This document shows, in pieces, positions 353 through 39,748 of a stretch of 39,748 nucleotides of DNA. Where the stretch lies: positions 1 through 39,748 of IMG/VR virus record IMGVR_UViG_3300033182_000047, one strand, 5' to 3'. Source of the DNA: a virus. The position numbers were made by a program, and so were the translations under genes. Positions within the stretch are counted from its first letter, which is position 1. Each line of letters opens with the position of its first letter. Below the pieces are notes generated by a model. It saw only the letters and a program-made list of their open reading frames with translations, did no database searches and had not been told where the DNA came from.

Positions 353-375
353 GCCCCGGTTCGCCGGGGTTTTTT
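353..375 (+). terminator. Rho-independent terminator closing the first early transcription unit
   Basis: CCCCGG(354-359)-ttcg-CCGGGG(364-369) followed by T6 (370-375), about 30 nt after the stop codon at 320-322. Confidence 0.85.
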
Positions 376-437
376 ATGCGTGGACGATCACGCTATAACT
401 CTCTCTCTGAGACTCTCAGTTACGCTGTACGGCCCGA

Positions 438-1035: not shown

Positions 1036-1064
1036 TTGACAGACTGGAATCTATCCTGTATCAT
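1036..1064 (+). promoter_or_regulatory. Sigma70-type promoter TTGACA-17-TATCAT (second early unit)
   Basis: TTGACA 1036-1041, 17-nt spacer ending in TG, TATCAT 1059-1064. Predicted +1 near 1071, 24 nt before ATG 1095. Shares TGTTGACA with the 38946 promoter. Confidence 0.7.
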
Positions 1065-1094
1065 TCGGTTACACACTCAAAACAGGAAAGGAAA

Positions 1095-1388
1095 ATGATC
1101 TACAAAGCACTACTCAGCGTCACTCACGATGACACATTCACCACCTTTAATTGCGTGAACGTATTCAAGGGAGATGGTGAAAATGTTGACAACACTTTCA
1201 GCATCATGCACTCTGACCCAGCCAATCGGGTTCCACCCCCTGAAGGGATAATGAAAAGTGTCCGCGAATGGGCAGAAGGGAAACTCGTGCAGGACGCCTT
1301 TCCTTATCTTTGGCCAAAAGAAAGGGAATTGCTTTTAACAGGTTTCACCCCAGAGGACTGGGAAAACATGGACGATTTGGGAGAATAA
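1095..1388 (+). CDS. Early protein, unknown function (97 aa, acidic C-terminus ...ENMDDLGE)
   Basis: ATG 1095 preceded by aggaaagga. The GTG 1023 start in the ORF track would lie upstream of the promoter. Stop is embedded in the GGAGAATAAAATG junction. Confidence 0.75.
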   Translation: MIYKALLSVTHDDTFTTFNCVNVFKGDGENVDNTFSIMHSDPANRVPPPEGIMKSVREWAEGKLVQDAFPYLWPKERELLLTGFTPEDWENMDDLGE

Positions 1389-1389
1389 A

Positions 1390-1656
1390 ATGAAACAGTC
1401 AGACGCTATTAGAATTCACAATGAGGCGGTAGCCCTTGCACAAAAGGCTACTCAGGAACACCATGAGGAACATGGGGATATGTTAGCGGAATGGAGTGTG
1501 GAGAGGGTTGACAACAACTACAGAATATGTTATAATGGAGCCTGTAAAGCAACAAGTCAAGACATGGGTTACGCCTATGACTTGGTGAGGGTCTTAAACT
1601 GCGATGGCTTTATTGACGATGCAAATGATCTAAGGGAGATGGAAAATGCTGACTAA
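1390..1656 (+). CDS. Early protein, unknown function (88 aa, acidic)
   Basis: ATG 1390 is part of GGGAGAATAAAATG (RBS-stop-start junction). Continuous ORF. Confidence 0.75.
   Translation: MKQSDAIRIHNEAVALAQKATQEHHEEHGDMLAEWSVERVDNNYRICYNGACKATSQDMGYAYDLVRVLNCDGFIDDANDLREMENAD
1508..1536 (+). promoter_or_regulatory. Consensus sigma70 promoter TTGACA-17-(TGt)TATAAT inside CDS 1390..1656
   Basis: TTGACA 1508-1513, 17-nt spacer ending tgt, TATAAT 1531-1536. Confidence 0.65.
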
Positions 1657-1819
1657 AGAAAACTATGACGATGTTAAATGGGATTTAATGAACTATTCCA
1701 CCAAGTCAATGCACAGATATATCAAGGAATCTACCATCGAAAAGGTTTGGGAATTGCTTGATAAAGAGATTGACTTTGAAGAGATTGCAGACTATACTTA
1801 CGATAACTACGGAGAATAA
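1646..1819 (+). CDS. Early protein, unknown function (57 aa, not in the ORF track because under 60 aa): MLTKENYDDVKWDLMNYSTKSMHRYIKESTIEKVWELLDKEIDFEEIADYTYDNYGE
   Basis: Translated by hand. ATG 1646 preceded by agggaga RBS. Overlaps the end of 1390..1656 by 11 nt. Stop lies in GGAGAATAAAATG immediately before ATG 1821. Confidence 0.6.
   Translation: MLTKENYDDVKWDLMNYSTKSMHRYIKESTIEKVWELLDKEIDFEEIADYTYDNYGE
1770..1798 (+). promoter_or_regulatory. Sigma70-type promoter TTGACT-17-TATACT
   Basis: TTGACT 1770-1775, 17-nt spacer, TATACT 1793-1798. Predicted +1 near 1805, just before RBS GGAGAA 1811 and ATG 1821. Confidence 0.6.
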
Positions 1820-1820
1820 A

Positions 1821-2078
1821 ATGACTATTTCAGAATCAGAGGCGCGACTGTGGCGCAAGTTAAGCGAGTCTAGGGTAAACAACGCTTCATTGTCCACCGC
1901 TATAGCGCATGACATTTTCGATCTTGTCCTGCATGAGTTAGTATCAAAGTATCACGGCACAAAGGTTAACCATATCGTAGCCGATGAAACTTGGGATGCC
2001 ATTGACAAAGGGCAGATATGCGAAGCAATCGAAGAGCATTTAGACAACATTTTGAAACACATAGAAGAGGGAGAATAA
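1821..2078 (+). CDS. Early protein, unknown function (85 aa, acidic)
   Basis: ATG 1821 in the GGAGAATAAAATG junction. The track start at 1758 has no RBS and overlaps the promoter. Confidence 0.75.
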   Translation: MTISESEARLWRKLSESRVNNASLSTAIAHDIFDLVLHELVSKYHGTKVNHIVADETWDAIDKGQICEAIEEHLDNILKHIEEGE

Positions 2079-2079
2079 A

Positions 2080-2385
2080 ATGTTTGATCCAGTCGAAAGA
2101 GATTTTAACGCCTTCTCAAAATCACAGTCTTACGCGGAGGATTTTGAAGAGGCGGTCAATGAGAGGGTACAGCAGGAAGTTGAGAAGTTCTTCGATGACC
2201 TAATCATTGATGACGTTCAGACCTATCTGGGGAATGATAACAGCATCGTGCTTGAGTTAAACGGCAACGGCTTTGTGCTGACCCCAGATGCTCTGGCTAA
2301 ACTGTCAGACCTCAGTACATGGACGGTGCAGGAATACGATGATGCCATGTCGGAAGAGAATGACAAGCAAAGACAATGGGACTAG
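2080..2385 (+). CDS. Early protein, strongly acidic (101 aa), unknown function
   Basis: ATG 2080 in the GGGAGAATAAAATG junction. Asp/Glu-rich throughout (EDFEEAVNE, FFDDLIIDD, EYDDAMSEEND). Confidence 0.75.
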   Translation: MFDPVERDFNAFSKSQSYAEDFEEAVNERVQQEVEKFFDDLIIDDVQTYLGNDNSIVLELNGNGFVLTPDALAKLSDLSTWTVQEYDDAMSEENDKQRQWD

Positions 2386-2474
2386 CGAGTTTAGACAGGT
2401 GATGCTGGCATCTGAGAGTCTGGTGGGGGCGCTAGTCTAACCTCCTTTCCCCCCACTAGACAACCAGTTTAATT

Positions 2475-2870
2475 ATGATTGAGAAAAGAGCGTTAAGAAT
2501 ACTCAGAAACATTCCCAAAAGAATGGTGGCCACTGTACGCCATCAAGGGGATGTTGAGTCTGAGACAATGATGAAGAGCGCGGTTAAATGTCTTGACATT
2601 CTATCCCGCTCACGTAGAACAACAAACAAGATGATGGTAGAGGCGTGGAAGTTATACTTGCAAGCGCAGAATTTATCTGGCACAATACCGCAAAAGTTCC
2701 TAGACAATGACCACAATCACCCCATGAGAGTGGAGACTTCAACCAAAGTCAGGATCAAGGGAATGGATTGGAGTAAATTTTATAACACTAACCACAAACC
2801 ATTCGATCAATACTACAGACACGGTGGAAACTGGAGATACGGCAGATGGAAATCACGGAAAAAGAATTAA
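2475..2870 (+). CDS. Basic 131-aa protein of unknown function, first gene of the replication block
   Basis: Continuous ORF after an 89-nt gap. No Shine-Dalgarno before ATG 2475, so the start is uncertain. Arg/Lys-rich ends. Confidence 0.55.
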   Translation: MIEKRALRILRNIPKRMVATVRHQGDVESETMMKSAVKCLDILSRSRRTTNKMMVEAWKLYLQAQNLSGTIPQKFLDNDHNHPMRVETSTKVRIKGMDWSKFYNTNHKPFDQYYRHGGNWRYGRWKSRKKN

Positions 2871-3835
2871 AGCGGTACGATAGTGTTGGATCAGTTGAAC
2901 GTAGGGTCAGACCATCCAATGATTTTACCAGTGAAGTCTTTGACTTCTTCTTCAATGAAGAACAATTGCAGGGGGTTAAACTCCCATTCAGACAGTTTGA
3001 TGACAAGTTCAGACTGCGAGGGGAAGAACTAACCATCCTTGCAGGGATTAATGGCGCGGGGAAATCCCTGTTTGCTTCTCAGTGCCTGCTGTCTGCTATG
3101 GAGCAGGGGCATAAGTGCCTGTCAGTATCACTTGAAATGAGTCCTAAAGCGCAGTTGGCGAGAATGTGGCGTCAGGCATCACTCCAGAACAAACCAGACA
3201 TGGAAGCAGGGTTGCAGTTTACCAAATGGAGCAATGACAAACTGTGGTTCTATGACCAACACGGCACAGTCAATCCGCGTGTCCTGCTGTCCGTCATGAG
3301 GTATGCCTACGACAAACTAGGCATTGATGTATTCCTAGTGGACTCTCTGATGACCATGAATCTCAATAGCGATGATTGGAATGGGCAGAAGAACGTGGTG
3401 CAGGGGCTTGCCAATACAGCCAGACAGTTAGGGGTACACGTTATACTGGTGGCCCACGCTAGGAAAGGGCAGTCAGTCAAGGATAGGCTAGACAAATGGA
3501 GTGTCGCGGGGTCTGCTGACATAACAAACAGGGCAGACAACGTAATCATTCTGGGCAGGGTGTTTGATGACCCAGAGATTGACGCATACCTAAGTCTTTG
3601 TAAAGCAAGGCATTTTGATGGGGCTGAGATGGATTTGGATTTAAAACTTGACTTGGCCTCAATGAACTATTACCATGATGGGCAACTACCCAAAGCCATA
3701 TTGAAAACCCCGCCGAAAGGTGGTATAATGGGGGAGTTAGATAGAGTGGCACTAACTGAGGGAATAAATGAAAACATCATCCGCAAAGTCGAAGGGCAGA
3801 AGGCTTCAGCAATGGGTCAGATGTCTGTTAATTAA
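2846..3835 (+). CDS. DnaB / T7 gp4-like replicative helicase (RecA-fold, helicase domain only)
   Basis: Walker A GINGAGKS, SLEMS (DnaB H1a-like), Walker B DVFLVDSL, VILVAHARK, GSADITNRADNVIIL. No zinc-finger/TOPRIM primase domain upstream. Confidence 0.85.
   Translation: MEITEKELKRYDSVGSVERRVRPSNDFTSEVFDFFFNEEQLQGVKLPFRQFDDKFRLRGEELTILAGINGAGKSLFASQCLLSAMEQGHKCLSVSLEMSPKAQLARMWRQASLQNKPDMEAGLQFTKWSNDKLWFYDQHGTVNPRVLLSVMRYAYDKLGIDVFLVDSLMTMNLNSDDWNGQKNVVQGLANTARQLGVHVILVAHARKGQSVKDRLDKWSVAGSADITNRADNVIILGRVFDDPEIDAYLSLCKARHFDGAEMDLDLKLDLASMNYYHDGQLPKAILKTPPKGGIMGELDRVALTEGINENIIRKVEGQKASAMGQMSVN
3701..3729 (+). promoter_or_regulatory. Sigma70 promoter TTGAAA-17-(TGg)TATAAT inside the helicase 3' end
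   Basis: TTGAAA 3701-3706, 17-nt spacer ending tgg, TATAAT 3724-3729. Predicted +1 near 3736, upstream of RBS gaggga and ATG 3768. Confidence 0.65.
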
Positions 3836-4118
3836 AACGTTTGATCTGGAGCCAGATGATGTGTACTCACGCAGTTCGGGAGCCACGGGTGAGGATGTTA
3901 TGCTCTCACCCGAGGCTAGAGCAATCTTCCCATACAGTATAGAATGCAAGAACGTGGAGAAATTAAATTTGTGGGAGGCTTGGAAACAAGCAGAAGCAAA
4001 CGCAGGGGGCTACGAACCCTTGCTAATCGTAAAACGCAATAGGCAAAAACCTTTGGCAGTCGTAGATGCTGAACATTTTATAGGAGTTTTAAATGAAGAT
4101 GACAGTGCATCCCTTTGA
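3768..4118 (+). CDS. Hjc-like PD-(D/E)XK Holliday-junction resolvase / endonuclease
   Basis: KSKGRRLQQWV, SSGATGEDV and SIECKNV reproduce the KG-R-E...SG..D...E-x-K layout of archaeal Hjc-type resolvases. RBS gaggga. Overlaps the helicase end by 68 nt. Confidence 0.65.
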   Translation: MKTSSAKSKGRRLQQWVRCLLIKTFDLEPDDVYSRSSGATGEDVMLSPEARAIFPYSIECKNVEKLNLWEAWKQAEANAGGYEPLLIVKRNRQKPLAVVDAEHFIGVLNEDDSASL

Positions 4119-4329
4119 TAGGGAATTTATGGATCAGTTCTTTTCACCAATCAAATACCGAACCTTTAGCGGGGAACGTATTGAGGGAGAGGGAACTAAG
4201 GAAAACCCTTATGTAATTCACCGTCAAAAAATAGTTGACAAGGTGTATCATGGGTGGTATGATGACGATGGTGGGTATCACGAAGTTTTGGTAAAAGAAG
4301 ATACCCAAGATAAAAAACAAGAGGAATAA
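4093..4329 (+). CDS. Hypothetical protein (78 aa)
   Basis: ATG 4093 preceded by taggag. Continuous ORF. Confidence 0.65.
   Translation: MKMTVHPFDREFMDQFFSPIKYRTFSGERIEGEGTKENPYVIHRQKIVDKVYHGWYDDDGGYHEVLVKEDTQDKKQEE
4235..4263 (+). promoter_or_regulatory. Sigma70 promoter TTGACA-17-(TGg)TATGAT inside CDS 4093..4329
   Basis: TTGACA 4235-4240, 17-nt spacer ending tgg, TATGAT 4258-4263. About 60 nt upstream of ATG 4331. Confidence 0.65.
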
Positions 4330-4330
4330 T

Positions 4331-4786
4331 ATGAAATATGTAGAGATAGCGTTGAAACGCCCCTTTGCTAATCACAAGTGGCGCAAAGGTTACAAGGGTG
4401 GTAAAGACTTGGTGTACATTGATGCGCGAGATGTAATGAACCGACTGGATGAGGTGTTTGGTGTTGGCGGTTGGCAAGCGCATTACGAAAGTGTAGGTGG
4501 CCGTATGATCTGCAAGTTGTCATGCAGAATAGATGGTCAGTGGGTTACTAAGTCTGATGGCGCGGGTGATACTGACATTGAAGGCGACAAAGGGGGCATT
4601 AGCGATGCCTTGAAGAGAGCCGGAGTCCTATGGGGAATTGGACGCTATCTCTACTACCCTTCTGCCTTTGACTCAAACAAGCAACCCGCTGAGTGGGCTA
4701 CGCCAGAGGGCTATGATAAACTCATGGAGCAACGGCACAAGAAAGACATTGAAAAGTGGAGAAAGGATTACGAGGACTCTTTATGA
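4331..4786 (+). CDS. Rad52/Rad22-family single-strand annealing protein
   Basis: GGISDALKRAGVLWGIGRYLY matches the conserved Rad52/22 core as I remember it. RBS gaggaa. Confidence 0.8.
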   Translation: MKYVEIALKRPFANHKWRKGYKGGKDLVYIDARDVMNRLDEVFGVGGWQAHYESVGGRMICKLSCRIDGQWVTKSDGAGDTDIEGDKGGISDALKRAGVLWGIGRYLYYPSAFDSNKQPAEWATPEGYDKLMEQRHKKDIEKWRKDYEDSL

Positions 4787-6429
4787 AATTTAGAACTGAA
4801 CTAGGCGAAACTATTTTTAAGCAGAAGTACGCAAGCAACCCTTATGAAACTTGGGAGGACAAAGCACACACCGTAGTCAACAATGTCTGCGGTACATACG
4901 ATGGCAAGAAAAATAACTTAATGTCCAAGTCTGACCAAGATCAATTGGTTCAGTACATATCTGACTTTAAGTTTATGCCCGGTGGCCGATACCTGTGGTA
5001 CGCAGGGAGAGAGGCGCGGTTCTATAACAACTGTTACTTGTTGAGGTTGGAAGAGGATACCAGAGAAGAGTGGGCTAGTGTGACGCAGAGAGCAATGTCC
5101 TGCTTAATGACAGGTGGAGGCATTGGGGTGGATGTTTCCATAGCAAGGCCGTCAGGCAGACAACTCAGGCGCACAGGTGGGGTTGCCTCCGGCCCCATCC
5201 CCCTTCTGTTCACCTTGAACGAGGTCGGCAGGAATGTCATGCAGGGTGGCAGTCGGAGGTCTGCCCTGTATGGCTGTATGAACTGGCAACATGAGGATGC
5301 CTCTAATCTACTTGAGGCTAAGAACTGGCATGATATGAAAGCCGGGGATACTACCCTGTCTGCTCTTAAACAGGCAGACTTTAACTTCCCCGCCCCATTG
5401 GATATGATGAACGTCAGTCTGAACTATGATGATGCTTGGCTAAATACTGAATCGCGGGCATCTGACCCGATCTTTGTTAAGAATGTGCGTCAGGCTATGA
5501 TGACAGGCGAACCGGGATTTAGTTTTAATTTTGGAGAGAAAGAAAATGAAACGCTTAGAAATGCTTGCACTGAAATTACGAGTGAAGATGACAGTGATGT
5601 CTGTAATCTTGGCTCTGTTAATCTTGCAAACATTGATTCTATCGAAGAATTTCGTGAAGTGGTTGGGCTTGCGAGTAAGTTCTTGGTATGTGGACTTATC
5701 AGAGCGCAACTACCTTACGAGAAAGTGGAAGAGGTAAGACAGAAGAACAGTCGTATAGGGCTTGGACTTATGGGTATGCACGAATGGTTACTCAAGCGTG
5801 GTCATAAGTACGAGATGGTAGATGAACTTAAACAATGGATGAAAGTATATGAACGAGAAAGCAAACGATCCGCTGACGCACATTGCGACAGACTTTTTCT
5901 CAACCGTCCTAAAGGCTACAGAGCAATCGCTCCAACAGGGACAATTAGTATTCTCGCGGGAACAACCAGTGGCGTGGAGCCAATCTACGCCGTGGCATAC
6001 CGCAGACGCTACCTTGCGGATGGAACCAGATGGAAACATCAGTTTGTCGTTGACGGTACGGCCCAAGAACTGATCGACTCAGGGATAAAACCAGAGAAGA
6101 TTGAGTCTGCTGTAGACCTAGCCTTTGATCCTGAACGCAGGGTGAAGTTTCAGTATGAACTACAGAAGCACGTTGACCATGCTATTAGTTCTACGTTGAA
6201 CCTTCCCGCTTGGGGAACGGAATCAAACAACGAGGATACTGTGATTGATTTTCAGAAGATTATCGCTAACTACGCCCCCGGTTTGAGGGGTCTGACAGTG
6301 TATCCTGATGGTGCTAGGGGTGGTCAGCCTATAACGTCAGTGCCTTATGAAGAGGCTCACAGTAAGCGTGGCGTGGTCTATGAGGACAACAGTGAAGAGC
6401 AATGTCTGAGTGGGGTGTGCGGGATATGA
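4783..6429 (+). CDS. nrdJ: Ribonucleotide reductase, single-subunit, class II (B12-dependent) inferred
   Basis: NNCYLL, N-x-C-x-E loop RNACTEI, CNLGSVNL, C-terminal C-x4-C (CLSGVCGI). No NrdB or NrdG partner in the genome. ATG 4783 overlaps the upstream stop (ATGA) and has a gagga RBS, so it is preferred over the GTG 4756 of the track. Confidence 0.85.
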   Translation: MKFRTELGETIFKQKYASNPYETWEDKAHTVVNNVCGTYDGKKNNLMSKSDQDQLVQYISDFKFMPGGRYLWYAGREARFYNNCYLLRLEEDTREEWASVTQRAMSCLMTGGGIGVDVSIARPSGRQLRRTGGVASGPIPLLFTLNEVGRNVMQGGSRRSALYGCMNWQHEDASNLLEAKNWHDMKAGDTTLSALKQADFNFPAPLDMMNVSLNYDDAWLNTESRASDPIFVKNVRQAMMTGEPGFSFNFGEKENETLRNACTEITSEDDSDVCNLGSVNLANIDSIEEFREVVGLASKFLVCGLIRAQLPYEKVEEVRQKNSRIGLGLMGMHEWLLKRGHKYEMVDELKQWMKVYERESKRSADAHCDRLFLNRPKGYRAIAPTGTISILAGTTSGVEPIYAVAYRRRYLADGTRWKHQFVVDGTAQELIDSGIKPEKIESAVDLAFDPERRVKFQYELQKHVDHAISSTLNLPAWGTESNNEDTVIDFQKIIANYAPGLRGLTVYPDGARGGQPITSVPYEEAHSKRGVVYEDNSEEQCLSGVCGI

Positions 6430-6623
6430 AACCTTCACACTACAAGATGAAAATACAGCCTATTGAATATATAATGGCCAATAGGCTTGACTTCTGCTCT
6501 GGTAATATAGTAAAATACGCTAGTAGATGGGACAAGAAGGGAGAACCATATTCCGACTTGTGTAAGATCATAGAGTACGCTAACATATTAATAGAGGAAA
6601 TTAATGCCAAGGATCATAAGTAA
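6426..6623 (+). CDS. DUF3310-like small protein
   Basis: HYKMKIQPIEYI...GNIVKYASRWDKKG...DLCKIIEYANILIE fits the DUF3310 pattern. ATG 6426 overlaps the RNR stop (ATGA). Confidence 0.7.
   Translation: MKPSHYKMKIQPIEYIMANRLDFCSGNIVKYASRWDKKGEPYSDLCKIIEYANILIEEINAKDHK
6487..6516 (+). promoter_or_regulatory. Weaker sigma70-like promoter TTGACT-18-TAAAAT
   Basis: TTGACT 6487-6492, 18-nt spacer, TAAAAT 6511-6516. Upstream of ATG 6604. Confidence 0.35.
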
Positions 6624-6888
6624 GGCATACCTTGAGTGGGTAGCCACCCTTCCCTGTAGCGAGTGTAAGGCTACGGATGGGACTGTGGTGGCGCACCACC
6701 TTAAAGGTAGGTACGCACCCCTGTCTGGTGGCATGGGGTACAAGGCGGATGACTGGTTGACAATGCCCCTTTGCTTTAAGTGTCATACAAAGATGCACTC
6801 AGGCGATGCGGAATTAATGAACTGGCAACCATATTTTATTTTGAAAACACTTGACAAAGCATTTGATGATGGTATAATAGAATTATGA
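6604..6888 (+). CDS. DUF968/HNH-like zinc-binding putative nuclease
   Basis: LPCSECK...VVAHHLKG...MPLCFKCHTKMH (Cys pairs plus His). RBS gaggaa. Confidence 0.6.
   Translation: MPRIISKAYLEWVATLPCSECKATDGTVVAHHLKGRYAPLSGGMGYKADDWLTMPLCFKCHTKMHSGDAELMNWQPYFILKTLDKAFDDGIIEL
6851..6878 (+). promoter_or_regulatory. Consensus sigma70 promoter TTGACA-16-(TGg)TATAAT; predicted +1 coincides with the A of ATG 6885
   Basis: TTGACA 6851-6856, 16-nt spacer ending tgg, TATAAT 6873-6878. 6878 + 7 = 6885. Confidence 0.65.
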
Positions 6889-10030: not shown

Positions 10031-10190
10031 AATCATCAGGGTCTTTAGTGTTTGCGATGACGATTGTATCATCGTCCTGACTAACTAACCACCCCACAGT
10101 AAAAAGGGTGGGGCAAGAAATCTCCTGCTCCCACCCTGATGTTGCTATAATGTCACGCCATTCGACAATGACTAAAGGTTTGTTAGACAT
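9888..10190 (-). CDS. Small conserved phage protein (beta-rich, unknown function), last gene of the late arm
   Basis: VIVEWRDIIATSGWEQE...FTVGWLVSQDDDTIVIA...GAVVRV follows a pattern I recognise from many small phage proteins. No SD before ATG 10190. Confidence 0.6.
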   Translation of the reverse strand: MSNKPLVIVEWRDIIATSGWEQEISCPTLFTVGWLVSQDDDTIVIANTKDPDDFMGENHPPVYYGLHAFPSGAVVRVHPCDPAHTYTEKSPPSFQISAPK

Positions 10191-33121: not shown

Positions 33122-35085
33122 GTTGCTCCTATTGCTACGGCCCTATTCTGTTCTCTTTCAAGGGCCAGTTCTGCGGATTTAAGTTGTGCGTCTACAGCGG
33201 CTTCCTGTGCGTCCTGTTGGACTTTCATCATCTTGACTTGTAGGTCGCCCTGTTTGATTTCCAACTCCTTCATTTTAATCTGTTGCTCCATCATCGCGGC
33301 CTGCTCTTCTGGGGAAGGCTGTTCAGGCTGTGGTGGAGGCGGAGGGGTCAGGTAGTCATCTACGTTCTGATAACCCATAGCCTTAACCAATGCGGCTCCC
33401 AGATTGTACATATTCTGTGGAGTTACGATGGGTAGTCCACCCTGCATGGCTTGTGCGGCAAACTGAATCATTTGTGACAGATGAGCCATTTGCTGATCTT
33501 TTGAACCATTTCCTAATGCAACAGATACAGTGCAGTCCATCTTATCTGACCAACTATCAGGGCGTACAGGAACCCACTGATTCCTCAACATAACTACTCG
33601 TTCTTTGTCCTGATATTTAAGTAGGAGTTCATAGATGCACCACATCAACTCTTTAACACCAGTCTCGGCAAACTGTCTTGCAATCATCTCAACTCTTGAC
33701 TGAGCGTTTGACATAACAGCGTTGACAGCGGTAGCCGTGGTATGGGACGTTAGAGCGTCTGCATTAATACCTTGGGTGTTTTTGTTTACCCCTGATCTTG
33801 ACTCTCTTACCTCATCCAGATAGTTAAGCATCTGGAAGGATTCTGGCTGTAATGGAGGGGTAGCCAAGGGCATGACGGCGTTGGGGGATTTAACTCGTAC
33901 TACGCCCCCCGGCCTCTGGGTTAGCAAATCATCTAAATTCGCTTGACCCTCAAGGACAGCATACCTACCGTAGTTCTGGTTATAGGCGTTGTCCATCAGA
34001 TTACGCATCAGCGTACTCTTGATTAATTGTAAATCCATTACGAGATCAGCCACGGACAGACCGTAGAACTTATGGGGGATTTTCAAGGGGGTGATAGAAA
34101 CAAACGGAGCCTTGTCTATTTCTTCATTGGAGAATACATAACTACCCACGGAACAAACCTTTCTCAGTTCCGCTATGCCATCTTCGTTATAATCTGTTTT
34201 AATGAATGACTCGTAAAGCCAATATTCTCTTAGGGCTTCTTCTGTATTATTATCTAATCCATAGCCAGAGAAGGTTGCTTGAGTCTCATCAAATGAGAAT
34301 CTTGCAAGACGTTCTGCATTGGGGTCGATCATATCATCGCCGCCACCCAAATCTTCAGGCCCAAAGTCCTGATCTGGGTACATCTCCCTTAATTCTGAGA
34401 GTGTTTTCTTTACGCGGTGGCAGACAAACCTTGCATCATGTATTCCTTTCGCCTCTCTGGAAATAAGGAATTCTTCAGGTGGTACATTCTCAATACACAC
34501 CTTACCGTTGTATCCAGTGCGTTTAATAACAACGTCATGGTAAACTCCACCATCTTCTGTGATACTGTTTGACTGTACTTCGGTATGCTCAAGAACCTCT
34601 ACATCATCATCCGAGATAAGATATTCAAACTCAAGTTCCCCAAGATTATGGTATTCCTCTCTTTGAGCCTCTTCATACTCATCCCACCATACTTTGACAA
34701 TACCATTCTTTTGAAGGAGGGCATCATGGAACCACGAATAGAGGATTTCCCAACCGGGATTATCTTTTGTGAAAACGTAATTAACGTAATCAGTGGCCTG
34801 CTCTGCGGCCTGCACATCTTCTGGCCCTTGTGGCGTGAATTTAACCATCTCATCGCCAGAGGCGAATACCCTCATCAGAGAAGGTTTGATCCATTCGATT
34901 GTATCTTGAACAGTGGAATCAACGTATTGACTGCGGCCATCCACCTCGTTACCAAAGGGCAACGCATAGTAGTATTCTTGAGCCAACTCCCGTTGCTCTG
35001 CAAGATCATCGTTGTAATATCCTAGCGCATCATGTATTTCTACATTGATTCTTGCTAGTAATTCTCTATCGTCAGACAATGCCAT
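33118..35085 (-). CDS. Portal protein
   Basis: 655 aa immediately after terL. GRSQYVDSTVQDTIEWIKPSLMRVF...VKFTP...AEQATDYVNYVF portal signature. Pro-rich then coiled C-terminal barrel-like tail. Confidence 0.9.
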   Translation of the reverse strand: MALSDDRELLARINVEIHDALGYYNDDLAEQRELAQEYYYALPFGNEVDGRSQYVDSTVQDTIEWIKPSLMRVFASGDEMVKFTPQGPEDVQAAEQATDYVNYVFTKDNPGWEILYSWFHDALLQKNGIVKVWWDEYEEAQREEYHNLGELEFEYLISDDDVEVLEHTEVQSNSITEDGGVYHDVVIKRTGYNGKVCIENVPPEEFLISREAKGIHDARFVCHRVKKTLSELREMYPDQDFGPEDLGGGDDMIDPNAERLARFSFDETQATFSGYGLDNNTEEALREYWLYESFIKTDYNEDGIAELRKVCSVGSYVFSNEEIDKAPFVSITPLKIPHKFYGLSVADLVMDLQLIKSTLMRNLMDNAYNQNYGRYAVLEGQANLDDLLTQRPGGVVRVKSPNAVMPLATPPLQPESFQMLNYLDEVRESRSGVNKNTQGINADALTSHTTATAVNAVMSNAQSRVEMIARQFAETGVKELMWCIYELLLKYQDKERVVMLRNQWVPVRPDSWSDKMDCTVSVALGNGSKDQQMAHLSQMIQFAAQAMQGGLPIVTPQNMYNLGAALVKAMGYQNVDDYLTPPPPPQPEQPSPEEQAAMMEQQIKMKELEIKQGDLQVKMMKVQQDAQEAAVDAQLKSAELALEREQNRAVAIGAT

Positions 35086-36607
35086 AATCCCTATAGTGTA
35101 TTTCGCTAGTCCATTCGGGGTCAGACCCTGCTATGGCGTAGCGTTGTGATTGGAAGGCGTACCTTGTGGCGCTCATTAAGTCGTCCCTAAGTGCTACCAC
35201 TTTACCTTCCTTTCTGTGGTACATTCTAAACTCTTCAAACCAGTCGGAGAGTGTAGAGAATACTTTAAAGTTTCCTTTCTCCATGCTCTGTAGCATAGCC
35301 ATCAGCCCTTCCTCTACTGAGTTAGAGCCTTTCTTTTCACCTAGACCCGGAGGATTGGAGAAGTGTTGCATCAGGAAGTTACACCCTAAACTTCTATACT
35401 GCTCGGCAAGGCCGGGGTTTCCCATGCTATCCCTGCGATTTCCGTCATGCGGGTAGGCTATCGGAATAAAATAAGGACGTTGCCTTATCACCTCGGAGTG
35501 TACCGTTGGGCTTGCCTTGGATGCTCTATAGCAGTCGTATACATAGAAAGTATCACTTTCATTATCTATTGCACACCAAACAACAGCCGTTGGGTGATCC
35601 CAACCAAAGTCTATGGCCGCAATTCTAGGCCAATGATCCTCTATTTCTATTGGATCAATCATCAAATCTTCTTCGTTCAGGGGGAAGATAAGGCCAGAAC
35701 CGATAGACGGTCTACCGTATCTACGCATCTCCCTCTCATGGGGGGAGTAAGCAGAGAGAATCTGCTCCATCACCTCTTCGGAGAGATGCCCCTTTCTTCC
35801 CTGCATAGACTTCACGTTTTCTGAGGCGTGATCCCATGTGGCATTGGTTAGGCTCTGCCCCTTCTTTATGTTGTTCATAAAGGCGGCGACTGTTTCAGTC
35901 ATGCCGTTTTCAGGGGTGAAGGTCATGTAGACCATTCCCCTCCTGTCTAGGGTTCGCGTGACAGCCTGTGAGTACAATTCTCTGGATGGTTCCTCATCCA
36001 ACCATACCACATCTACTGATCTGCCTTGCCACTTGTCTACGCCCATCTCATAGGCTTTAAAGAATAAAGAAGAGTTCTCACCAGAAATATGCCGTATGAG
36101 GGCTACGGACTTGGCGTTTGGAACACCGGGCTTGCGTTCAGTTTTTATAATACATTCTCTGGGAACAGCGCCAGTGCCAAAGGCTTCTGGATCATCGGGA
36201 GAACCCAATAGTTCTGCTTGTACAATATCTCGGGTGGTTTCGTTAGATACACCACCCGCCCATGCTGTGATGGCTCTGTTAAATCTCCTACCCTTCCACC
36301 ATTTAGGATATAGTCCTGTAAGGTGGTAAGACATCTCTGCGGCTCCACAATAAGACTTTCCTATGCGGTTAGCCGCCATCAATAAGCGTTGGTTATTACC
36401 TACCCCTGTTTCGTGGAATTCCTGTTGGTATGGGTATGGATCGTAAAAGTCAATCTTACTAAATCTTTGACGTTTTTTTATTTCCTTTGCTATTTCTACC
36501 GCCTTTTCCATATCCACTTGCATAAGCGGCTCTTGCTTGTTTTTCGGCGGATGCTCTACTTGCATAGCATTTTCCAGATTTTCCCCATTTATAACCCTTT
36601 TTTCCAT
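35072..36607 (-). CDS. terL: Terminase large subunit
   Basis: Walker A-like AANRIGKS, Walker B VVWLDEEP, C-terminal nuclease-like AIDFGWDHP...D. Start codon uncertain (no SD at 36607). Confidence 0.92.
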   Translation of the reverse strand: MEKRVINGENLENAMQVEHPPKNKQEPLMQVDMEKAVEIAKEIKKRQRFSKIDFYDPYPYQQEFHETGVGNNQRLLMAANRIGKSYCGAAEMSYHLTGLYPKWWKGRRFNRAITAWAGGVSNETTRDIVQAELLGSPDDPEAFGTGAVPRECIIKTERKPGVPNAKSVALIRHISGENSSLFFKAYEMGVDKWQGRSVDVVWLDEEPSRELYSQAVTRTLDRRGMVYMTFTPENGMTETVAAFMNNIKKGQSLTNATWDHASENVKSMQGRKGHLSEEVMEQILSAYSPHEREMRRYGRPSIGSGLIFPLNEEDLMIDPIEIEDHWPRIAAIDFGWDHPTAVVWCAIDNESDTFYVYDCYRASKASPTVHSEVIRQRPYFIPIAYPHDGNRRDSMGNPGLAEQYRSLGCNFLMQHFSNPPGLGEKKGSNSVEEGLMAMLQSMEKGNFKVFSTLSDWFEEFRMYHRKEGKVVALRDDLMSATRYAFQSQRYAIAGSDPEWTSEIHYRDYGIV

Positions 36608-36634
36608 TGGGTAATGTACATGATTGTATTGGCA

Positions 36635-37009
36635 TCAGTTAAGAGGGCCAACAAGGGCTTCCAGTTCTCGTTGTAATTCCTCCGTTGATTTCTCTTCAAC
36701 GTGTGAGACTTCCTGTTTGATCTTCTCAGTGGGTTTAAGCCCTGCCCTGTCCAGTATATCCTTGACAGCGCCAAGTCTCACAGATTCGCTCTCAGCGCCT
36801 TCTGAGAGGTTTTTGAGAACCATCAATGCACCGGGTACACAATCCTGAATCATCTTGCGGGTGCGTTCCTCAATCTCTCTGGCGAACTGATTCTTTAACT
36901 CATACCCTCTTTGCTTTGGATGCGAATACCCTGCGGTTTGTGCGGCTTTAGCGGCACACCCATGCAGACAGTATTGCTCAATGAATATCTCTTGTTTTTC
37001 AGTCCTCAT
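36635..37009 (-). CDS. terS: Terminase small subunit
   Basis: QEIFIEQYCLHGCAAKAAQTAGYSHPKQRGYELKNQ matches the Terminase_2 HTH pattern (F..eY...gNa..AA..AGYS). Directly upstream of terL. Confidence 0.85.
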   Translation of the reverse strand: MRTEKQEIFIEQYCLHGCAAKAAQTAGYSHPKQRGYELKNQFAREIEERTRKMIQDCVPGALMVLKNLSEGAESESVRLGAVKDILDRAGLKPTEKIKQEVSHVEEKSTEELQRELEALVGPLN

Positions 37010-38597
37010 AAGGATTTCCTATAAGCCCAAGGGTAGCGGCTAAACTTGCCGCTATACGATTTGGTGCAATGCTATCAGCATCAGACAAAATAGCGTTAAA
37101 TAATGCCTCATCTTCTTTACTTAAAATTCCTTGTTCTGGTCGTGGTACTTTTGGTTTTGTTTTCTGCGATTCTTTAGCATTCTTCAGAGAAATACCCTCT
37201 CTTCCCTCTTTAGGTGGATTTTTGTATTTTGGTGTTAGTTTTCTAGCCAGTTTTTCTCCGGTCTTACCGCCAATACTTATCTCTCTGGTTCCGATTCCCA
37301 CTATCGCATCAGCAGACCCCGGAATTTTTTGGCCGAATATATCCTGTTTATCCGTACCAAACATCTTCATAGTACCATTGTTCTTAACCTTGACTATAGC
37401 ATTAAATCCACCCAAAAGATAGTCCCTTTTCCCTGCTGGAGAAAACTGAAAGAATACTCCATCAGTACCCTGACGAATTTTCATCGGAACTTTTGATTTC
37501 CATTCTGGATCGTACCTATCCAAAACTTCTAGCCACTCATCTGCGGTCTGCGGGTTGTGCTTGGCCTTCAATGATTTTAGTACAGATGCCTGCCTTGATT
37601 TACCTACATCACTTAGGGAGTCTCCTGCGGCCCTAATATTTTTCTTGTTTAAGAATATTACATCACTTGGGCCTTGAATTCTACCACCTGACAGACTTTT
37701 CTTAAAGCCCTCTGTCCATGCCTCGCGGGACATATCGTAGATCATTTCTGCGTCTACGTCATCAAACATATCACTGGCCAACTGTCGATCAAAGGGCATT
37801 TCATACCCAAACCGCCGTTCAGCATAAGGGCTAAATACTTGTGGTATTTTTCCCCCATGATTTGTCATCATCTTGGCGTGTAGTATGTTTTGGGCTACCT
37901 GACCGTCAATCTTTCTTATTGCATCACGCATAGCACTTTTGATTTCTTCGGTATATCCGCCTTCCTCCCCCAATTTTTTCAACTCATTATAATCATCTAA
38001 GTTTTTTCTAATGACTCTTTTGGTGGCTAAAGGGACTTTGCTTGCGCTATAGAGTTTTCTGGTAAGGTCAAGAGAACCTTCCTCAAAAGCCCTTCCAATG
38101 TTTAATGCAACACCGGGGGCTTTATTTCCGCTATAAAAGCCGGGAACGTAATTACGCATATTCATAACGTAATTCTTTATTAACTTGGGAAAGCCCATAA
38201 TACCAAGGTCAAAACCCGCTGAAACAAAGTCCAAGAGGCCAACCTCTTCTGTGGGGCTAATACGCTTTCTAGTAGCGGTTGCCAGACCTCTAGGTACGAT
38301 ATCAAGCGCCCTGTTGACCCTTGGCCCCTCTGGCTCACGGCTAGCCTTAGAGGCAAAATCGTACAACAAATCTCCTATGGTATCCAACCCTCCCGATCTT
38401 GGTGGTGTTATTCCCCTAATGCCGTGATAAGGGTCTTGGGCTAAAGGTATCAGATTGGGCTGTGTCTCATTAACCATTTGCCCACCCGTTTTCTGATAGC
38501 CCTGTCGTGCTATATATTCCTCCAATAGCCCCCTCTGGTCATCTGCATACTGGCCTCCCATTCTCTCCTGTAATTGCTTTAGTAGTGTCTTAGCCAT
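36999..38597 (-). CDS. 532-aa ORFan, promoter-proximal gene of the late arm
   Basis: Continuous ORF. No motif recognised and no SD at ATG 38597. An internal ATG 38561 (Met13) has an acAGGAGAGA RBS and is an alternative start. Confidence 0.75.
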   Translation of the reverse strand: MAKTLLKQLQERMGGQYADDQRGLLEEYIARQGYQKTGGQMVNETQPNLIPLAQDPYHGIRGITPPRSGGLDTIGDLLYDFASKASREPEGPRVNRALDIVPRGLATATRKRISPTEEVGLLDFVSAGFDLGIMGFPKLIKNYVMNMRNYVPGFYSGNKAPGVALNIGRAFEEGSLDLTRKLYSASKVPLATKRVIRKNLDDYNELKKLGEEGGYTEEIKSAMRDAIRKIDGQVAQNILHAKMMTNHGGKIPQVFSPYAERRFGYEMPFDRQLASDMFDDVDAEMIYDMSREAWTEGFKKSLSGGRIQGPSDVIFLNKKNIRAAGDSLSDVGKSRQASVLKSLKAKHNPQTADEWLEVLDRYDPEWKSKVPMKIRQGTDGVFFQFSPAGKRDYLLGGFNAIVKVKNNGTMKMFGTDKQDIFGQKIPGSADAIVGIGTREISIGGKTGEKLARKLTPKYKNPPKEGREGISLKNAKESQKTKPKVPRPEQGILSKEDEALFNAILSDADSIAPNRIAASLAATLGLIGNPYED

Positions 38598-38625
38598 ATA
38601 TTAGAGAATTCTTATGAAGGGTAAA
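38598..38625 (-). promoter_or_regulatory. Weak promoter-like element TTTACC-16-TAATAT abutting ATG 38597
   Basis: TAATAT = revcomp of 38598-38603, TTTACC = revcomp of 38620-38625. The predicted +1 would fall just inside the annotated ORF, compatible with the Met13 start. Confidence 0.3.
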
Positions 38626-38669
38626 ATGTCCTGATGGTGAGTGGGTACAATATAACGCTATTGCGCTAG

Positions 38670-38689
38670 AAAAAAAGGGGGTCGCCCCC
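38670..38689 (-). terminator. Intrinsic terminator on the minus strand, upstream of the late operon
   Basis: Minus strand reads GGGGG-cga-CCCCC followed by T7 (plus-strand A-run 38670-38676). The stem is only 5 bp but all G-C. Confidence 0.55.
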
Positions 38690-38768
38690 GGTCAGCGCCA
38701 CGCGCCCGCGCCACGCGCACATAAAGGTGGCTAGGCGAGCAGGGTTCAGTTGAGCAGTAGTCCAGAAT
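38670..38768 (-). ncRNA. Candidate ~100-nt GC-rich leader / small RNA between the 38802 promoter and the 38689 terminator
   Basis: Bounded by promoter and terminator. Contains GCGCGTGGCGC twice in tandem (plus-strand gcgccacgcgc at 38695-38705 and 38708-38718). No SD-led ORF. Confidence 0.3.
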
Positions 38769-38774
38769 CGGTGA

Positions 38775-38802
38775 ATTTTATTTTTGCTATAGATAGTAGC
38801 AA
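38775..38802 (-). promoter_or_regulatory. Sigma70-type promoter TTGCTA-16-TAAAAT on the minus strand, with the -35 element inside a perfect inverted repeat
   Basis: TTGCTA = revcomp 38797-38802, TAAAAT = revcomp 38775-38780. TTGCTA-ctatcta-TAGCAA palindrome spans 38784-38802. Confidence 0.5.
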
Positions 38803-38945
38803 GACTTTTAGTTACCATGCCATAGAATAACCTACTATAATAGTCTGGTATTATCAGCGGATGGTCTGAGAGAGTGTGTGAGTGTGTGTCAGGAACGTCA
38901 TTAATTCCCTTTATACCCCTATCAAAACATTATCGAAAAAAAGTG

Positions 38946-38974
38946 TTGACACTGTGCCGAAAGTATGGATAATC
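38946..38974 (+). promoter_or_regulatory. Early promoter TTGACA-17-(TGg)ATAATC
   Basis: TTGACA 38946-38951, spacer ending tgg, ATAATC 38969-38974 (or GATAAT with a 16-nt spacer). Predicted +1 near 38981, 27 nt before ATG 39008. Confidence 0.7.
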
Positions 38975-39007
38975 CGCTTTGCTACTCAATCAATAGGAAA
39001 AAATCAA

Positions 39008-39106
39008 ATGAAACGATCTATCGCAAGTCTTGTTGCAGACATTCTATTCTTCGGTGTTTCATACGGCGCTATCGCCCTCACAATCTACATAATCATAGGA
39101 CTGTAA
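39008..39106 (+). CDS. 32-aa hydrophobic peptide MKRSIASLVADILFFGVSYGAIALTIYIIIGL
   Basis: First ATG after the early promoter, RBS aggaaa. The longer track ORF from 38882 would start upstream of the promoter. Confidence 0.5.
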   Translation: MKRSIASLVADILFFGVSYGAIALTIYIIIGL

Positions 39107-39108
39107 TC

Positions 39109-39222
39109 ATGCTAGAAACAATAATGGAAATTCTGGGCCTTGTTTTCGGTCTGCCCATGTTGGCAATGGGTATAATCGTTATAGGCGCTCTTTTAATATC
39201 GCCCTTTCTGAGGATCAAATAG
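39109..39222 (+). CDS. 37-aa hydrophobic peptide MLETIMEILGLVFGLPMLAMGIIVIGALLISPFLRIK
   Basis: ATG 39109, 2 nt after the previous stop, RBS agga. One TM helix. Confidence 0.5.
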   Translation: MLETIMEILGLVFGLPMLAMGIIVIGALLISPFLRIK

Positions 39223-39371
39223 TGGAAATTGACTATATCTATATTGACGAAAACGGCCTGAAAGTAACACGTTTAAAGCCACAAAAGACTGTTGAAGAAT
39301 ACCGCGCTCATAGTGGTGGCTTATTCGATGATGATCTGATAGAATCTATTGACGATTTAACGGGAGAATAA
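39222..39371 (+). CDS. 49-aa acidic protein (GTG start) ...FDDDLIESIDDLTGE (not in track)
   Basis: Translated by hand. GTG 39222 overlaps the previous stop (TAGTG) and follows a gagga RBS. Stop lies in GGGAGAATAATAATG just before ATG 39374. Confidence 0.5.
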   Translation: MEIDYIYIDENGLKVTRLKPQKTVEEYRAHSGGLFDDDLIESIDDLTGE

Positions 39372-39373
39372 TA

Positions 39374-39748
39374 ATGCAAATCAAAATCAGCAAAATGAGC
39401 GGGAAATTACACGGCATTGGTGCGATTAACACCGATACAACCACCAATGAGTTTTGTATCCGCCAGAAAGAAACCGACACAATTTGCGGTAAATGCTACT
39501 CACACAAAATGCTTTCAACGTATCGCAAGTCTTGTGTACCAGCCTTTCAACACAATTCTAAACTCATGTCTGAATTGATAGACTGGGATTTATTACCGGT
39601 AATTAATCAAGCATATTTCCGCTTTAATGGTCATGGGGAATTAATCAACATGGCACACTTTCAAAACATCGTAAATATTGCGCGGAAAAATCCTCATTGT
39701 AACTTCGCATTGTGGACTAAAAGAGCGTCAATTGTTCGCCAGTTTAAA
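39374..39748 (+). CDS. GP88-like Cys-rich early protein, N-terminal part (continues at base 113 of the circular map; see 2..322)
   Basis: ATG 39374 after RBS gggaga. Reading frame runs off the window end and is continuous with 14..322. Confidence 0.7.
   Translation, partial: MQIKISKMSGKLHGIGAINTDTTTNEFCIRQKETDTICGKCYSHKMLSTYRKSCVPAFQHNSKLMSELIDWDLLPVINQAYFRFNGHGELINMAHFQNIVNIARKNPHCNFALWTKRASIVRQFK
39637..39748. repeat. Right copy of the exact 112-bp end duplication
   Basis: Identical to 1..112. Confidence 0.95.

Follow-up and report, generated by a model that had tools for sequence, protein, structure and literature searches.

A predicted short terminal repeat with two putative terminase processing sites at the early-late junction of an uncultured marine podophage

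The IMG/VR record IMGVR_UViG_3300033182_000047, analyzed here over its full 39,748 nucleotides (nt) and referred to below as the window, represents the entire genome of a podophage (∼39.6 kb; 39,636 bp of unique sequence). The phage is an uncultured marine podophage, with a portal protein and a terminase that are 37–53% identical to their counterparts in LUZ24-, tf- and KIT05-type podoviruses. Its genes form two divergent arms. The early arm, on the plus strand, extends from ∼38965 across the window end to ∼10000 and encodes a helicase/primase, Rad52, a ribonucleotide reductase, nucleases and a GP88-like protein. The late arm consists of open reading frames (ORFs) from 38597 down to 10280, all on the minus strand, and comprises an ORF of 532 residues, the small and large terminase subunits (TerS and TerL), the portal, scaffold and capsid proteins, and the tail genes. 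The subject of this report is the non-coding junction between the two arms, whose features are listed in Table 1. In an original prediction made from the sequence alone, this junction was described as the one non-coding control region that precedes the late arm, which agrees with our analysis, and was interpreted as a promoter, a leader and an intrinsic terminator similar to the lambda PR'/tR' switch, or as a free-standing small RNA, both of which we consider improbable for the reasons given below.

Table 1. Positions and properties of the features at and around the early-late junction.
Feature	Position	Strand	Remarks
Predicted direct terminal repeat, ∼242 bp	38655..38896	.	boundaries inferred, uncertain by a few bases; predicted at both ends of virion DNA
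Outer boundary motif (copy 1): GACGTT 38899-38894, CCTGAC, CA-rich ACACACTCACACAC	38866..38899	-	conserved across lineages
Inner boundary motif (copy 2): TATATT 38654-38649, GTACC, CACTCACCATC, AGG	38630..38654	-	nearly invariant in 54 non-redundant versions
C-tract/T-tract box: GACC, GGGGG, cga, CCCCC, T7	38670..38693	-	can form a hairpin terminator in the window lineage
GC island with two tandem copies of GCGCGTGGCGC	38695..38718	-	specific to the window lineage; unrelated inserts in other lineages
Promoter-like site of the original prediction, TTGCTA-16-TAAAAT	38775..38802	-	9/12; overlaps inverted repeat 38784-38802
Promoter-like site TTACCA-18-TATAAT, toward early genes	38812..38841	+	10/12; inside the predicted repeat; in relatives position kept, score weaker
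Early promoter TTGACA-16-GATAAT	38946..38973	+	11/12; ∼50 nt outside the outer repeat boundary
Candidate weak late promoter TTTACC-16-TAATAT	38598..38625	-	8/12; between the predicted repeat and the first late ORF; function inferred
First late ORF, 532 aa	36999..38597	-	no family match; possible true start ATG 38561 behind AGGAG
Small terminase (TerS)	36635-37009	-	PHROG match; presumed to act on the boundary motifs
Large terminase (TerL)	35072-36607	-	PHROG match; presumed to act on the boundary motifs

The sequence elements on which the original prediction was built are all present. On the minus strand, TTGCTA (38802-38797) is followed after a 16-nt spacer by TAAAAT (38780-38775), and the first of these hexamers is one arm of the perfect inverted repeat TTGCTA-N7-TAGCAA (38802-38784), which is found once in the window against an expectation of 0.01. 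Further downstream, the 11-mer GCGCGTGGCGC occurs twice in tandem (38718-38708 and 38705-38695, also against 0.01 expected), within a GC island that has a G+C content of 0.62 at 38650-38749, compared to ∼0.45 for the genome. The island is followed by GGGGG (38689-38685), cga, CCCCC (38681-38677) and a run of seven T (38676-38670) that ends 72 nt before the ATG at 38597. These letters can form a hairpin with a 5-bp all-GC stem, a 3-nt loop and a U7 tail (free energy −7.8 kcal/mol), the top terminator-like site of the region and the best on the late strand.

To place these elements in an evolutionary context, the junction was compared with ∼90 related metagenomic loci and with phages tf, LUZ24 and KIT05. 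A query with an invariant 18-mer returned 13 viral contigs and, once chance matches had been discarded, ∼35 metagenome contigs, which represent 41 distinct versions of the junction. The 39 full-length versions among these are referred to below as the close set; spacing statistics were calculated on 54 non-redundant versions. The family is large, as more than 590 IMG/VR contigs carry a TerL with at least 78% identity. A diverged version of the inner site was located upstream of TerL in 48 of the 80 loci fetched through TerL, and among the TerL-fetched loci that extend 2.6 kb or more upstream, only two depart from the strict inner-site pattern. Among relatives, TerS is 59–99% identical while the site stays similar. 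Neither the region nor the 532-residue ORF has a match among 50,697 phage records, and 22 matches among genome contigs were discarded, all being chance 18-mers or unrelated genes that give no clue to the host.

The junction has a modular organization. All 39 versions of the close set have in common the elements M1–M4, the C-tract/T-tract box (C/T box) and a 57-nt block. In late-sense order, the modules are a conserved left block ending in ACACACTCACACAC, a variable middle, the C-tract with its T-run, a variable spacer of ∼15 nt, and the TATATT block. The middle segment, 60–150 nt in length, exists in at least five unrelated versions; the originally proposed promoter and GC-rich leader belong to one of them. 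The TATATT block is nearly invariant as far as TAATAT, even where the first ORF is only 51% identical, replaced or missing. The slot between the repeat and the small terminase is itself a mosaic: relatives (L003, L004, L006, L010, L011, L127 and L158) contain a 51% identical protein, an unrelated protein, or no gene at all with TerS directly next.

The two conserved blocks contain same-strand copies of one motif, a hexamer nAyrTy with a C- or CA-rich flank. The hexamers are located at 38899-38894 and 38654-38649, a spacing of 245 nt in the window and of 185–250 nt in relatives. With a slash marking the predicted cut, the outer copy reads AAT GAC/GTT CCTGACACACACTCACAC, i.e. GAC/GTT-CCTGAC-ACACACTCACAC, and is a weaker copy of the inner one. 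The inner boundary consists of GGGGGCGACCCCC, 22 nt, and /TATATT GTACCCACTCACCATCAGGA, with the motif /TATATT-GTACC-CACTCACCATCAGG. In diverged relatives, the outer copy is GATATTCTCCCCACACAC and the inner copy is GATATCCTCTCCACTCACC. A direct repeat formed by GTGAGTGTGT and GTGAGTGGGT, 241 nt apart, was found independently. The motif TATATT-CACTCACCA has a single strong copy in the window (position weight matrix score 41.8; next best 13.3). Family-wide, the two hexamers are GAyrTy and nATaTy, of which GACGTT and TATATT of the window are degenerate forms; in the inner hexamer, A occupies position 2 in 94% of the versions, T position 5 in all of them, and C position 6 in 28%.

A third conserved component lies just inside the inner boundary. 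In 54 of 54 versions, the proximal C-tract is followed by a T-run and ends 21–23 nt ahead of the inner hexamer. LUZ24, tf and KIT05 have a counterpart C-tract, which precedes the inner boundary by 23–27 nt. A stem at the T-run is possible in 17 of the 39 close versions. The remaining 22 have no usable stem: they contain two C-tracts and no G-run (e.g. GACCCCCCCACCGCCCC-T8), and the T-run is retained. The versions that do have a G-run often have a broken T-run. It is the presence of a G-run upstream of the C-tract in the window lineage that gives rise to the GGGGG/CCCCC hairpin, which the original prediction took for a terminator. That assignment is credible for the window genome, but it does not extend to the close set as a whole.

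The arrangement of two boundary motifs and an internal C-tract is shared with phages whose genome ends are mapped or annotated, and whose terminases are related (TerL 45–53% identical over 87–91% of its length to those of KIT05-type Vibrio phages, LUZ24-type phages and tf). The ends of Pseudomonas phage tf (Krylovvirus) were mapped experimentally and revealed a 186-bp direct terminal repeat, with 5'-GATATCcc-3' proposed as the core terminase site at both repeat boundaries (Glukhov et al. 2012, PMC3517423). In the late sense of the tf record, the outer boundary is GGGAT/ATCTCTGGGGCGTCCCCC (GAT/ATCTC), and the inner boundary is formed by GGGGCCACCCC and 27 nt ending in ..CCCGGGG/GGATATCC (/GGATATCCTATGTCCCCAC). 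Thus in tf, as in the window, two direct GATATy-type hexamers with C-rich sequence bracket the repeat, a tract (in tf the G/C-tract GGGGCCACCCC, at 27 nt) lies inside the inner boundary, and the repeat is positioned between divergent arms, upstream of TerS and TerL (TerL 45.5% identical). The two differ in several respects. The window hexamers are GACGTT and TATATT, its predicted repeat is ∼242 bp rather than 186 bp, and a perfect T7 follows the C-tract in the window. A distance of 57 nt separates the predicted repeat from the first late gene, compared to several hundred nucleotides with two intervening sigma-70 promoters in tf. The ends are mapped in tf, whereas those of the window are predicted from sequence.

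LUZ24 and phages of the PaP3 type (Bruynogheviruses) have direct terminal repeats of 184 and 182 bp. The annotated 184-bp repeat of LUZ24 extends from GAT/ATTCCCCCCGATCCACCCCC to GCCACCCCC plus 25 nt and /GATATTCCCCAGATACACCGGAGGA. Its outer boundary, GAT/ATTCCCCCC, matches the outer motif of the window; copies of GGGATATTCCCC are found on either side of the annotated repeat, the inner copy is preceded at 25 nt by GCCACCCCC, and the inner flank ..ACACCGGAGGA resembles ..TCACCATCAGGA of the window. Beyond the repeat the two phages differ, as the LUZ24 interval from the repeat to TerS contains tRNAs and canonical TTGACA-17-TATAAT promoters, which are absent from that of the window, and the portal proteins are only ∼41% identical. 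In LUZ24, ∼860 nt that include canonical sigma-70 promoters separate the inner motif from TerS, and therefore late transcription does not explain the conservation of the motif. Phage Delta, which belongs to the PaP3 species, is reported to have a 182-bp repeat and no cos ends, and the same work questioned the 'cos' end of PaP3 (PMC8540360). A cohesive-end reading based on the start of the PaP3 record (GCCGGCCCCTTTCCGCGTTA) was dropped in view of these data on Delta.

The Vibrio phage KIT05, whose TerL is 52% identical to that of the window, has 130 identical nucleotides at both ends of its record, which compares with 186 bp in tf, 184 bp in LUZ24 and 182 bp in Delta; the motif spacing in the window and its relatives is within the range of such short repeats. 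Its outer boundary is GAC/CTTCCCCTATGCACACCCACAC, reading GAC/CTTCCCC..CACACCCACAC, and its inner boundary consists of ACCCCCCATACCCC, 23 nt and /ATACGT..ATATACCGGAGGGGG (flank also ACCGGAGGGGG). A second isolate has an identical junction, and two relatives of the window (L157 and L200) carry the ACCGGAGGG of KIT05 and LUZ24. The genomic setting is also alike: the motif pair is located between divergent arms, TerL is ∼2 kb downstream, and a strong early promoter lies beyond the outer boundary, as in LUZ24 and tf, where early sigma-70 promoters are located beyond the left repeat. An equivalent early site scoring 10–11/12 is present just outside copy 1 in many relatives.

From the conservation, spacing and position of the motifs, and from their homology to phages with known or annotated ends, we conclude that the junction is probably a short direct terminal repeat (∼38655-38896, 242 bp) with two terminase processing sites, and that it is mainly a DNA-packaging element. 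The cuts were positioned by comparison with tf, LUZ24 and KIT05: the outer one would follow base 3 of its hexamer, and the inner one would directly precede the other hexamer. The predicted repeat, in the late sense, would thus begin inside the outer motif and end just before the inner one, with the C-tract and T-run 22 nt inside the inner cut. Replication would generate concatemers with one repeat between neighboring genomes. By analogy to tf and T7-type phages, the terminase would recognize both copies of the motif and cut there, and the repeat would be duplicated so as to be present at both ends of each virion DNA, giving a predicted molecule of ∼39.9 kb (39,636 bp of unique sequence and a repeat of ∼242 bp). 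Regulatory sequence specific to each lineage may occupy the variable middle; the window has there the inverted repeat, the two GC-rich 11-mers in tandem, and promoter-like sites that are weak and divergent.

Phage T7 offers a precedent for such a scheme. Its concatemers contain one common repeat between genomes, site-specific cuts are made at the two boundaries, and the repeat is duplicated. T7 also relies on an RNA polymerase of its own, and processing is helped by a site in the concatemer junction at which polymerase pauses. The window differs in that it has no sequence similarity to T7, and no phage RNA polymerase was detected by Pfam and PHROG searches among the ∼40 ORFs scanned. A T7-type polymerase promoter, suggested by the likeness of ACTCAC-CATC-GGGG to ACTCAC-TATA-GGG, was rejected on this ground and also because the motif is the repeat boundary in phages that use the host polymerase.

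Several observations weigh against a terminal repeat at the junction. Confidence in the assignment is limited because the ends of the window phage are read from a comparison of sequences, and the 130-nt repeat of KIT05 is likewise read from its sequence record. The hexamers of the window, GACGTT and TATATT, deviate from GATATy. The contig ends of relatives show no pile-up at the predicted termini, although contig ends proved unsuitable as a stand-in for physical ends, since breaks cluster at the common 57-mer, as expected for assembly graphs. A different repeat is present in the window itself, where positions 1-112 and 39637-39748 form an exact 112-bp direct repeat; it lies inside the GP88-like plus-strand ORF (∼39374 through to 322), and we therefore regard it as the assembly overlap of a circular or concatemeric map rather than as a physical terminal repeat. 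For the C/T box, the third conserved component, the obvious guess is that it may bind the small terminase. Finally, the conservation of the inner flank runs on to the TAATAT beside the first ORF. As a mere 40 nt separate the hexamer from the start of the first gene in some relatives, a transcriptional or translational role probably overlaps with packaging at this flank.

If correct, the assignment predicts the genome ends and the packaging signal for a large family of uncultured marine podophages, and would help to orient and complete their genomes. The tf-type GATATy boundary motif and the internal C-tract appear to be conserved among Pseudomonas phages, Vibrio phages and the window family. 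The junction also calls for caution in sequence-only readings, as a DNA-level element can produce, as a side effect, a GC hairpin and T-run adjacent to a late operon. Should late transcription start in or at the repeat, the junction would be a compact system in which to study how packaging sites and promoters use a common sequence.

In keeping with the original prediction, a promoter scan detected no convincing sigma-70 promoter within the late arm itself: none in the 28.7-kb arm is comparable to those of the early arm, which has eleven plus-strand promoters scoring at least 10/12, two of them 12/12. The start of late transcription may therefore lie within or beside the predicted repeat. There are three putative start sites: TTGCTA-16-TAAAAT; TATATT as a −10 element without a −35; and TTTACC-16-TAATAT. 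With the first, the hairpin would attenuate late transcripts in the window lineage. With either of the others it is located upstream of the start and is an insulator at most.

Among the alternatives, the one that fits the data best, though it is clearly less probable than a packaging element, with which it is compatible, is that the hairpin acts only as an insulator and that TTTACC-16-TAATAT drives the late operon, with a start at ∼38591 and translation from ATG 38561. This was the fallback of the original prediction. Both hexamers are invariant in ∼35 close versions and recognizable in several distant ones, and conservation stops exactly after TAATAT, whatever sequence follows. The annotated ATG at 38597 has no Shine-Dalgarno sequence, unlike most genes of the window, and the in-frame ATG at 38561 is preceded by AGGAG. 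However, the promoter matches the consensus at only 8 of 12 positions, the spacer is as conserved as the hexamers, and the motif is missing in more distant relatives. Some synonymous change is seen in codons 2–12 of the annotated ORF, and thus the first ATG (38597) may be the real one.

A lambda-like switch, in which a promoter at 38802-38775 would produce a leader of ∼100 nt that stops at the hairpin and T7 (38689-38670) and the late genes would require a phage factor, could coexist with the repeat but is unlikely. In lambda, the PR' promoter, the 6S RNA, tR' and Q form such a system, and the window resembles it in having a single control region before a very long late operon and a terminator-like hairpin upstream of the first late gene. 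The hairpin with its perfect T7 is the best site of this kind on the late strand and resembles the terminators at 353-376 (plus strand) and 10136-10111 (minus strand), and the scarcity of strong sigma-70 promoters in the late arm, compared with the eleven of the early arm, would fit a late operon read from the junction. A late promoter at such a position does exist in the family, since one relative (L193) has a 12/12 late-sense promoter inside the repeat, upstream of the C/T box. Within the window lineage, the TTGCTA/TAGCAA stem is kept by one double compensatory change and five U-G-compatible changes, a hint of late-sense transcription.

These points are outweighed by the lack of conservation of the parts that a switch would need. 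TTGCTA-16-TAAAAT reaches 9/12 in the window alone, where it is at chance level (eight sigma-70 sites of 9/12 in 36500-39748, against 6.7±2.8 in shuffled sequences); lineage mates have a spacer of 14–15 nt and score lower, and other lineages have unrelated sequence. The hairpin fares no better, since the close set includes the 22 stemless versions described above, and the T-run, which is kept even where no stem is possible, is often broken in those with a G-run. The putative leader of 105 nt has no folding advantage over shuffled sequences (z = +0.77). RNAalifold on 11 lineage mates yields a covariation term of +0.41, with 2 of 22 pairs compensatory, and favors no conserved structure. In line with the original remark that no Q-like gene is recognizable, no antiterminator family of Pfam or PHROG is matched among the ∼40 ORFs scanned, several small ORFs lying outside the scan; a novel factor may still be encoded. 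Terminator-like sites in the late arm are at chance level, except for the hairpin studied here and the site at the end of the operon, and thus the operon shows no need for antitermination. The parts of the junction that are conserved are explained by packaging sites.

It is equally doubtful that the inner motif is itself the late promoter, with TATATT (38654-38649) as a −10 element lacking a −35, a start at A38642 and a 45-nt leader; the pair of C-tracts at about −35 to −50 would then be, with the same low probability, the site for a phage activator or a sigma-like factor. The fixed distance of 21–23 nt between the C-tract and the hexamer, across a spacer of variable sequence, would suit such an arrangement, as would a single copy per genome heading the late arm, the absence of a canonical late promoter from the late arm, and a Shine-Dalgarno sequence and ATG ∼40 nt after the hexamer in two relatives (L192 and L193). 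However, a hexamer with T at the fifth position throughout and C at the sixth in over a quarter of the versions is atypical for a sigma-70 −10 element, a second copy of the motif is located 245 nt upstream with no gene behind it, and no sigma or activator family was detected in the ORF scans. In LUZ24 and tf, moreover, the motif is the repeat boundary and is far from the late promoters.

Still more speculative is a combined function for the C/T box, drawn by analogy with the T7 pause site. Located 22 nt before the inner cut, the box might be a stop or pause site for the host RNA polymerase, with a full hairpin terminator in a third of the lineages, that would restrain late-sense transcripts from the repeat and couple stalling to concatemer cutting, with the late genes needing a phage override factor; we regard this as improbable. 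A free-standing small RNA of ∼100–215 nt on the minus strand, ending at 38670, is very improbable indeed: it would end at the terminator-like site, and short promoter-proximal terminated RNAs are common in phages, with 42 terminators within 5' untranslated regions (5'UTRs) in six Pseudomonas phages (PMC10914365), but the region has no Rfam match at the gathering threshold or even at E≤10, the leader has neither a folding nor a covariation signal, and the segment is replaced by unrelated sequence in other lineages.

The proposed packaging element is accompanied by several lineage-specific features. On the minus strand of the window, three GCGC-N3-GCG(C) units (38718-38708, 38705-38695 and 38666-38656) flank the C/T box, with spacings of 13 and 39 nt. 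The first two are the tandem 11-mers, and the third, GCGCAATAGCG, lies between the T-run and the inner hexamer. These units may be lineage-specific operators. Many other lineages have one or two Fur-box-like sites in the variable middle of the repeat, and the window lineage has none. Examples are GCTAATGATAATCGTTTGC (15/19) and GCGAATGAGAATCATTCTC (14/19), scored against GATAATGATAATCATTATC. Such boxes are carried by L193 (∼2840-2870), L148/L150, L152/L153, L011/L014, L060/L081 and L142, and in L158, L160 and L164 the Fur-like GAATGAGAACGATTCGCATT is located directly 5' of the C-tract. In L193, the 12/12 late-sense promoter inside the repeat is followed by the Fur-like box, the C/T box, the hexamer, and a Shine-Dalgarno sequence with an ATG 40 nt on. 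The position of this box right behind the promoter suggests that late transcription is controlled by iron or by a repressor in the phages that have Fur-like boxes.

A short ORF encoding MTFLTHTHTLSQTIR (38901-38854, minus strand) behind AAGGGA overlaps the outer boundary motif, and similar His/Thr-rich peptides of 15–21 residues recur in many relatives, although not in all. A coding role was rejected, as the peptide is absent or of another length in some versions and a 66-residue ORF of one lineage is not common to others. The CA-rich motif is kept regardless of this ORF and was therefore treated as a nucleotide-level element. A 5'UTR hairpin, GGGGTA-AAA-TACCC, was also discarded; it is present in some relatives and broken in the class to which the window belongs.

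Transcription signals elsewhere in the genome are more conventional. An intrinsic terminator at 353-376 (plus strand), GCCCCGG-ttcg-CCGGGGT followed by TTTTT, is located after the GP88-like gene, and another at 10111-10136 (minus strand), with a GGGTGGG..CCCACCC stem followed by TTTTT, is located where the early and late arms converge. Near-consensus sigma-70 promoters crowd the plus strand at 1036-6878, including 12/12 sites with an extended TG at 1508-1536 and 6851-6878, and 11/12 sites at 1036, 3701 and 4235. Inside the early arm, a minus-strand 10/12 sigma-70-like promoter with an extended TG (911-939) is located upstream of a basic 62-residue minus-strand ORF (438-626), and may define an antisense or counter-transcribed unit.

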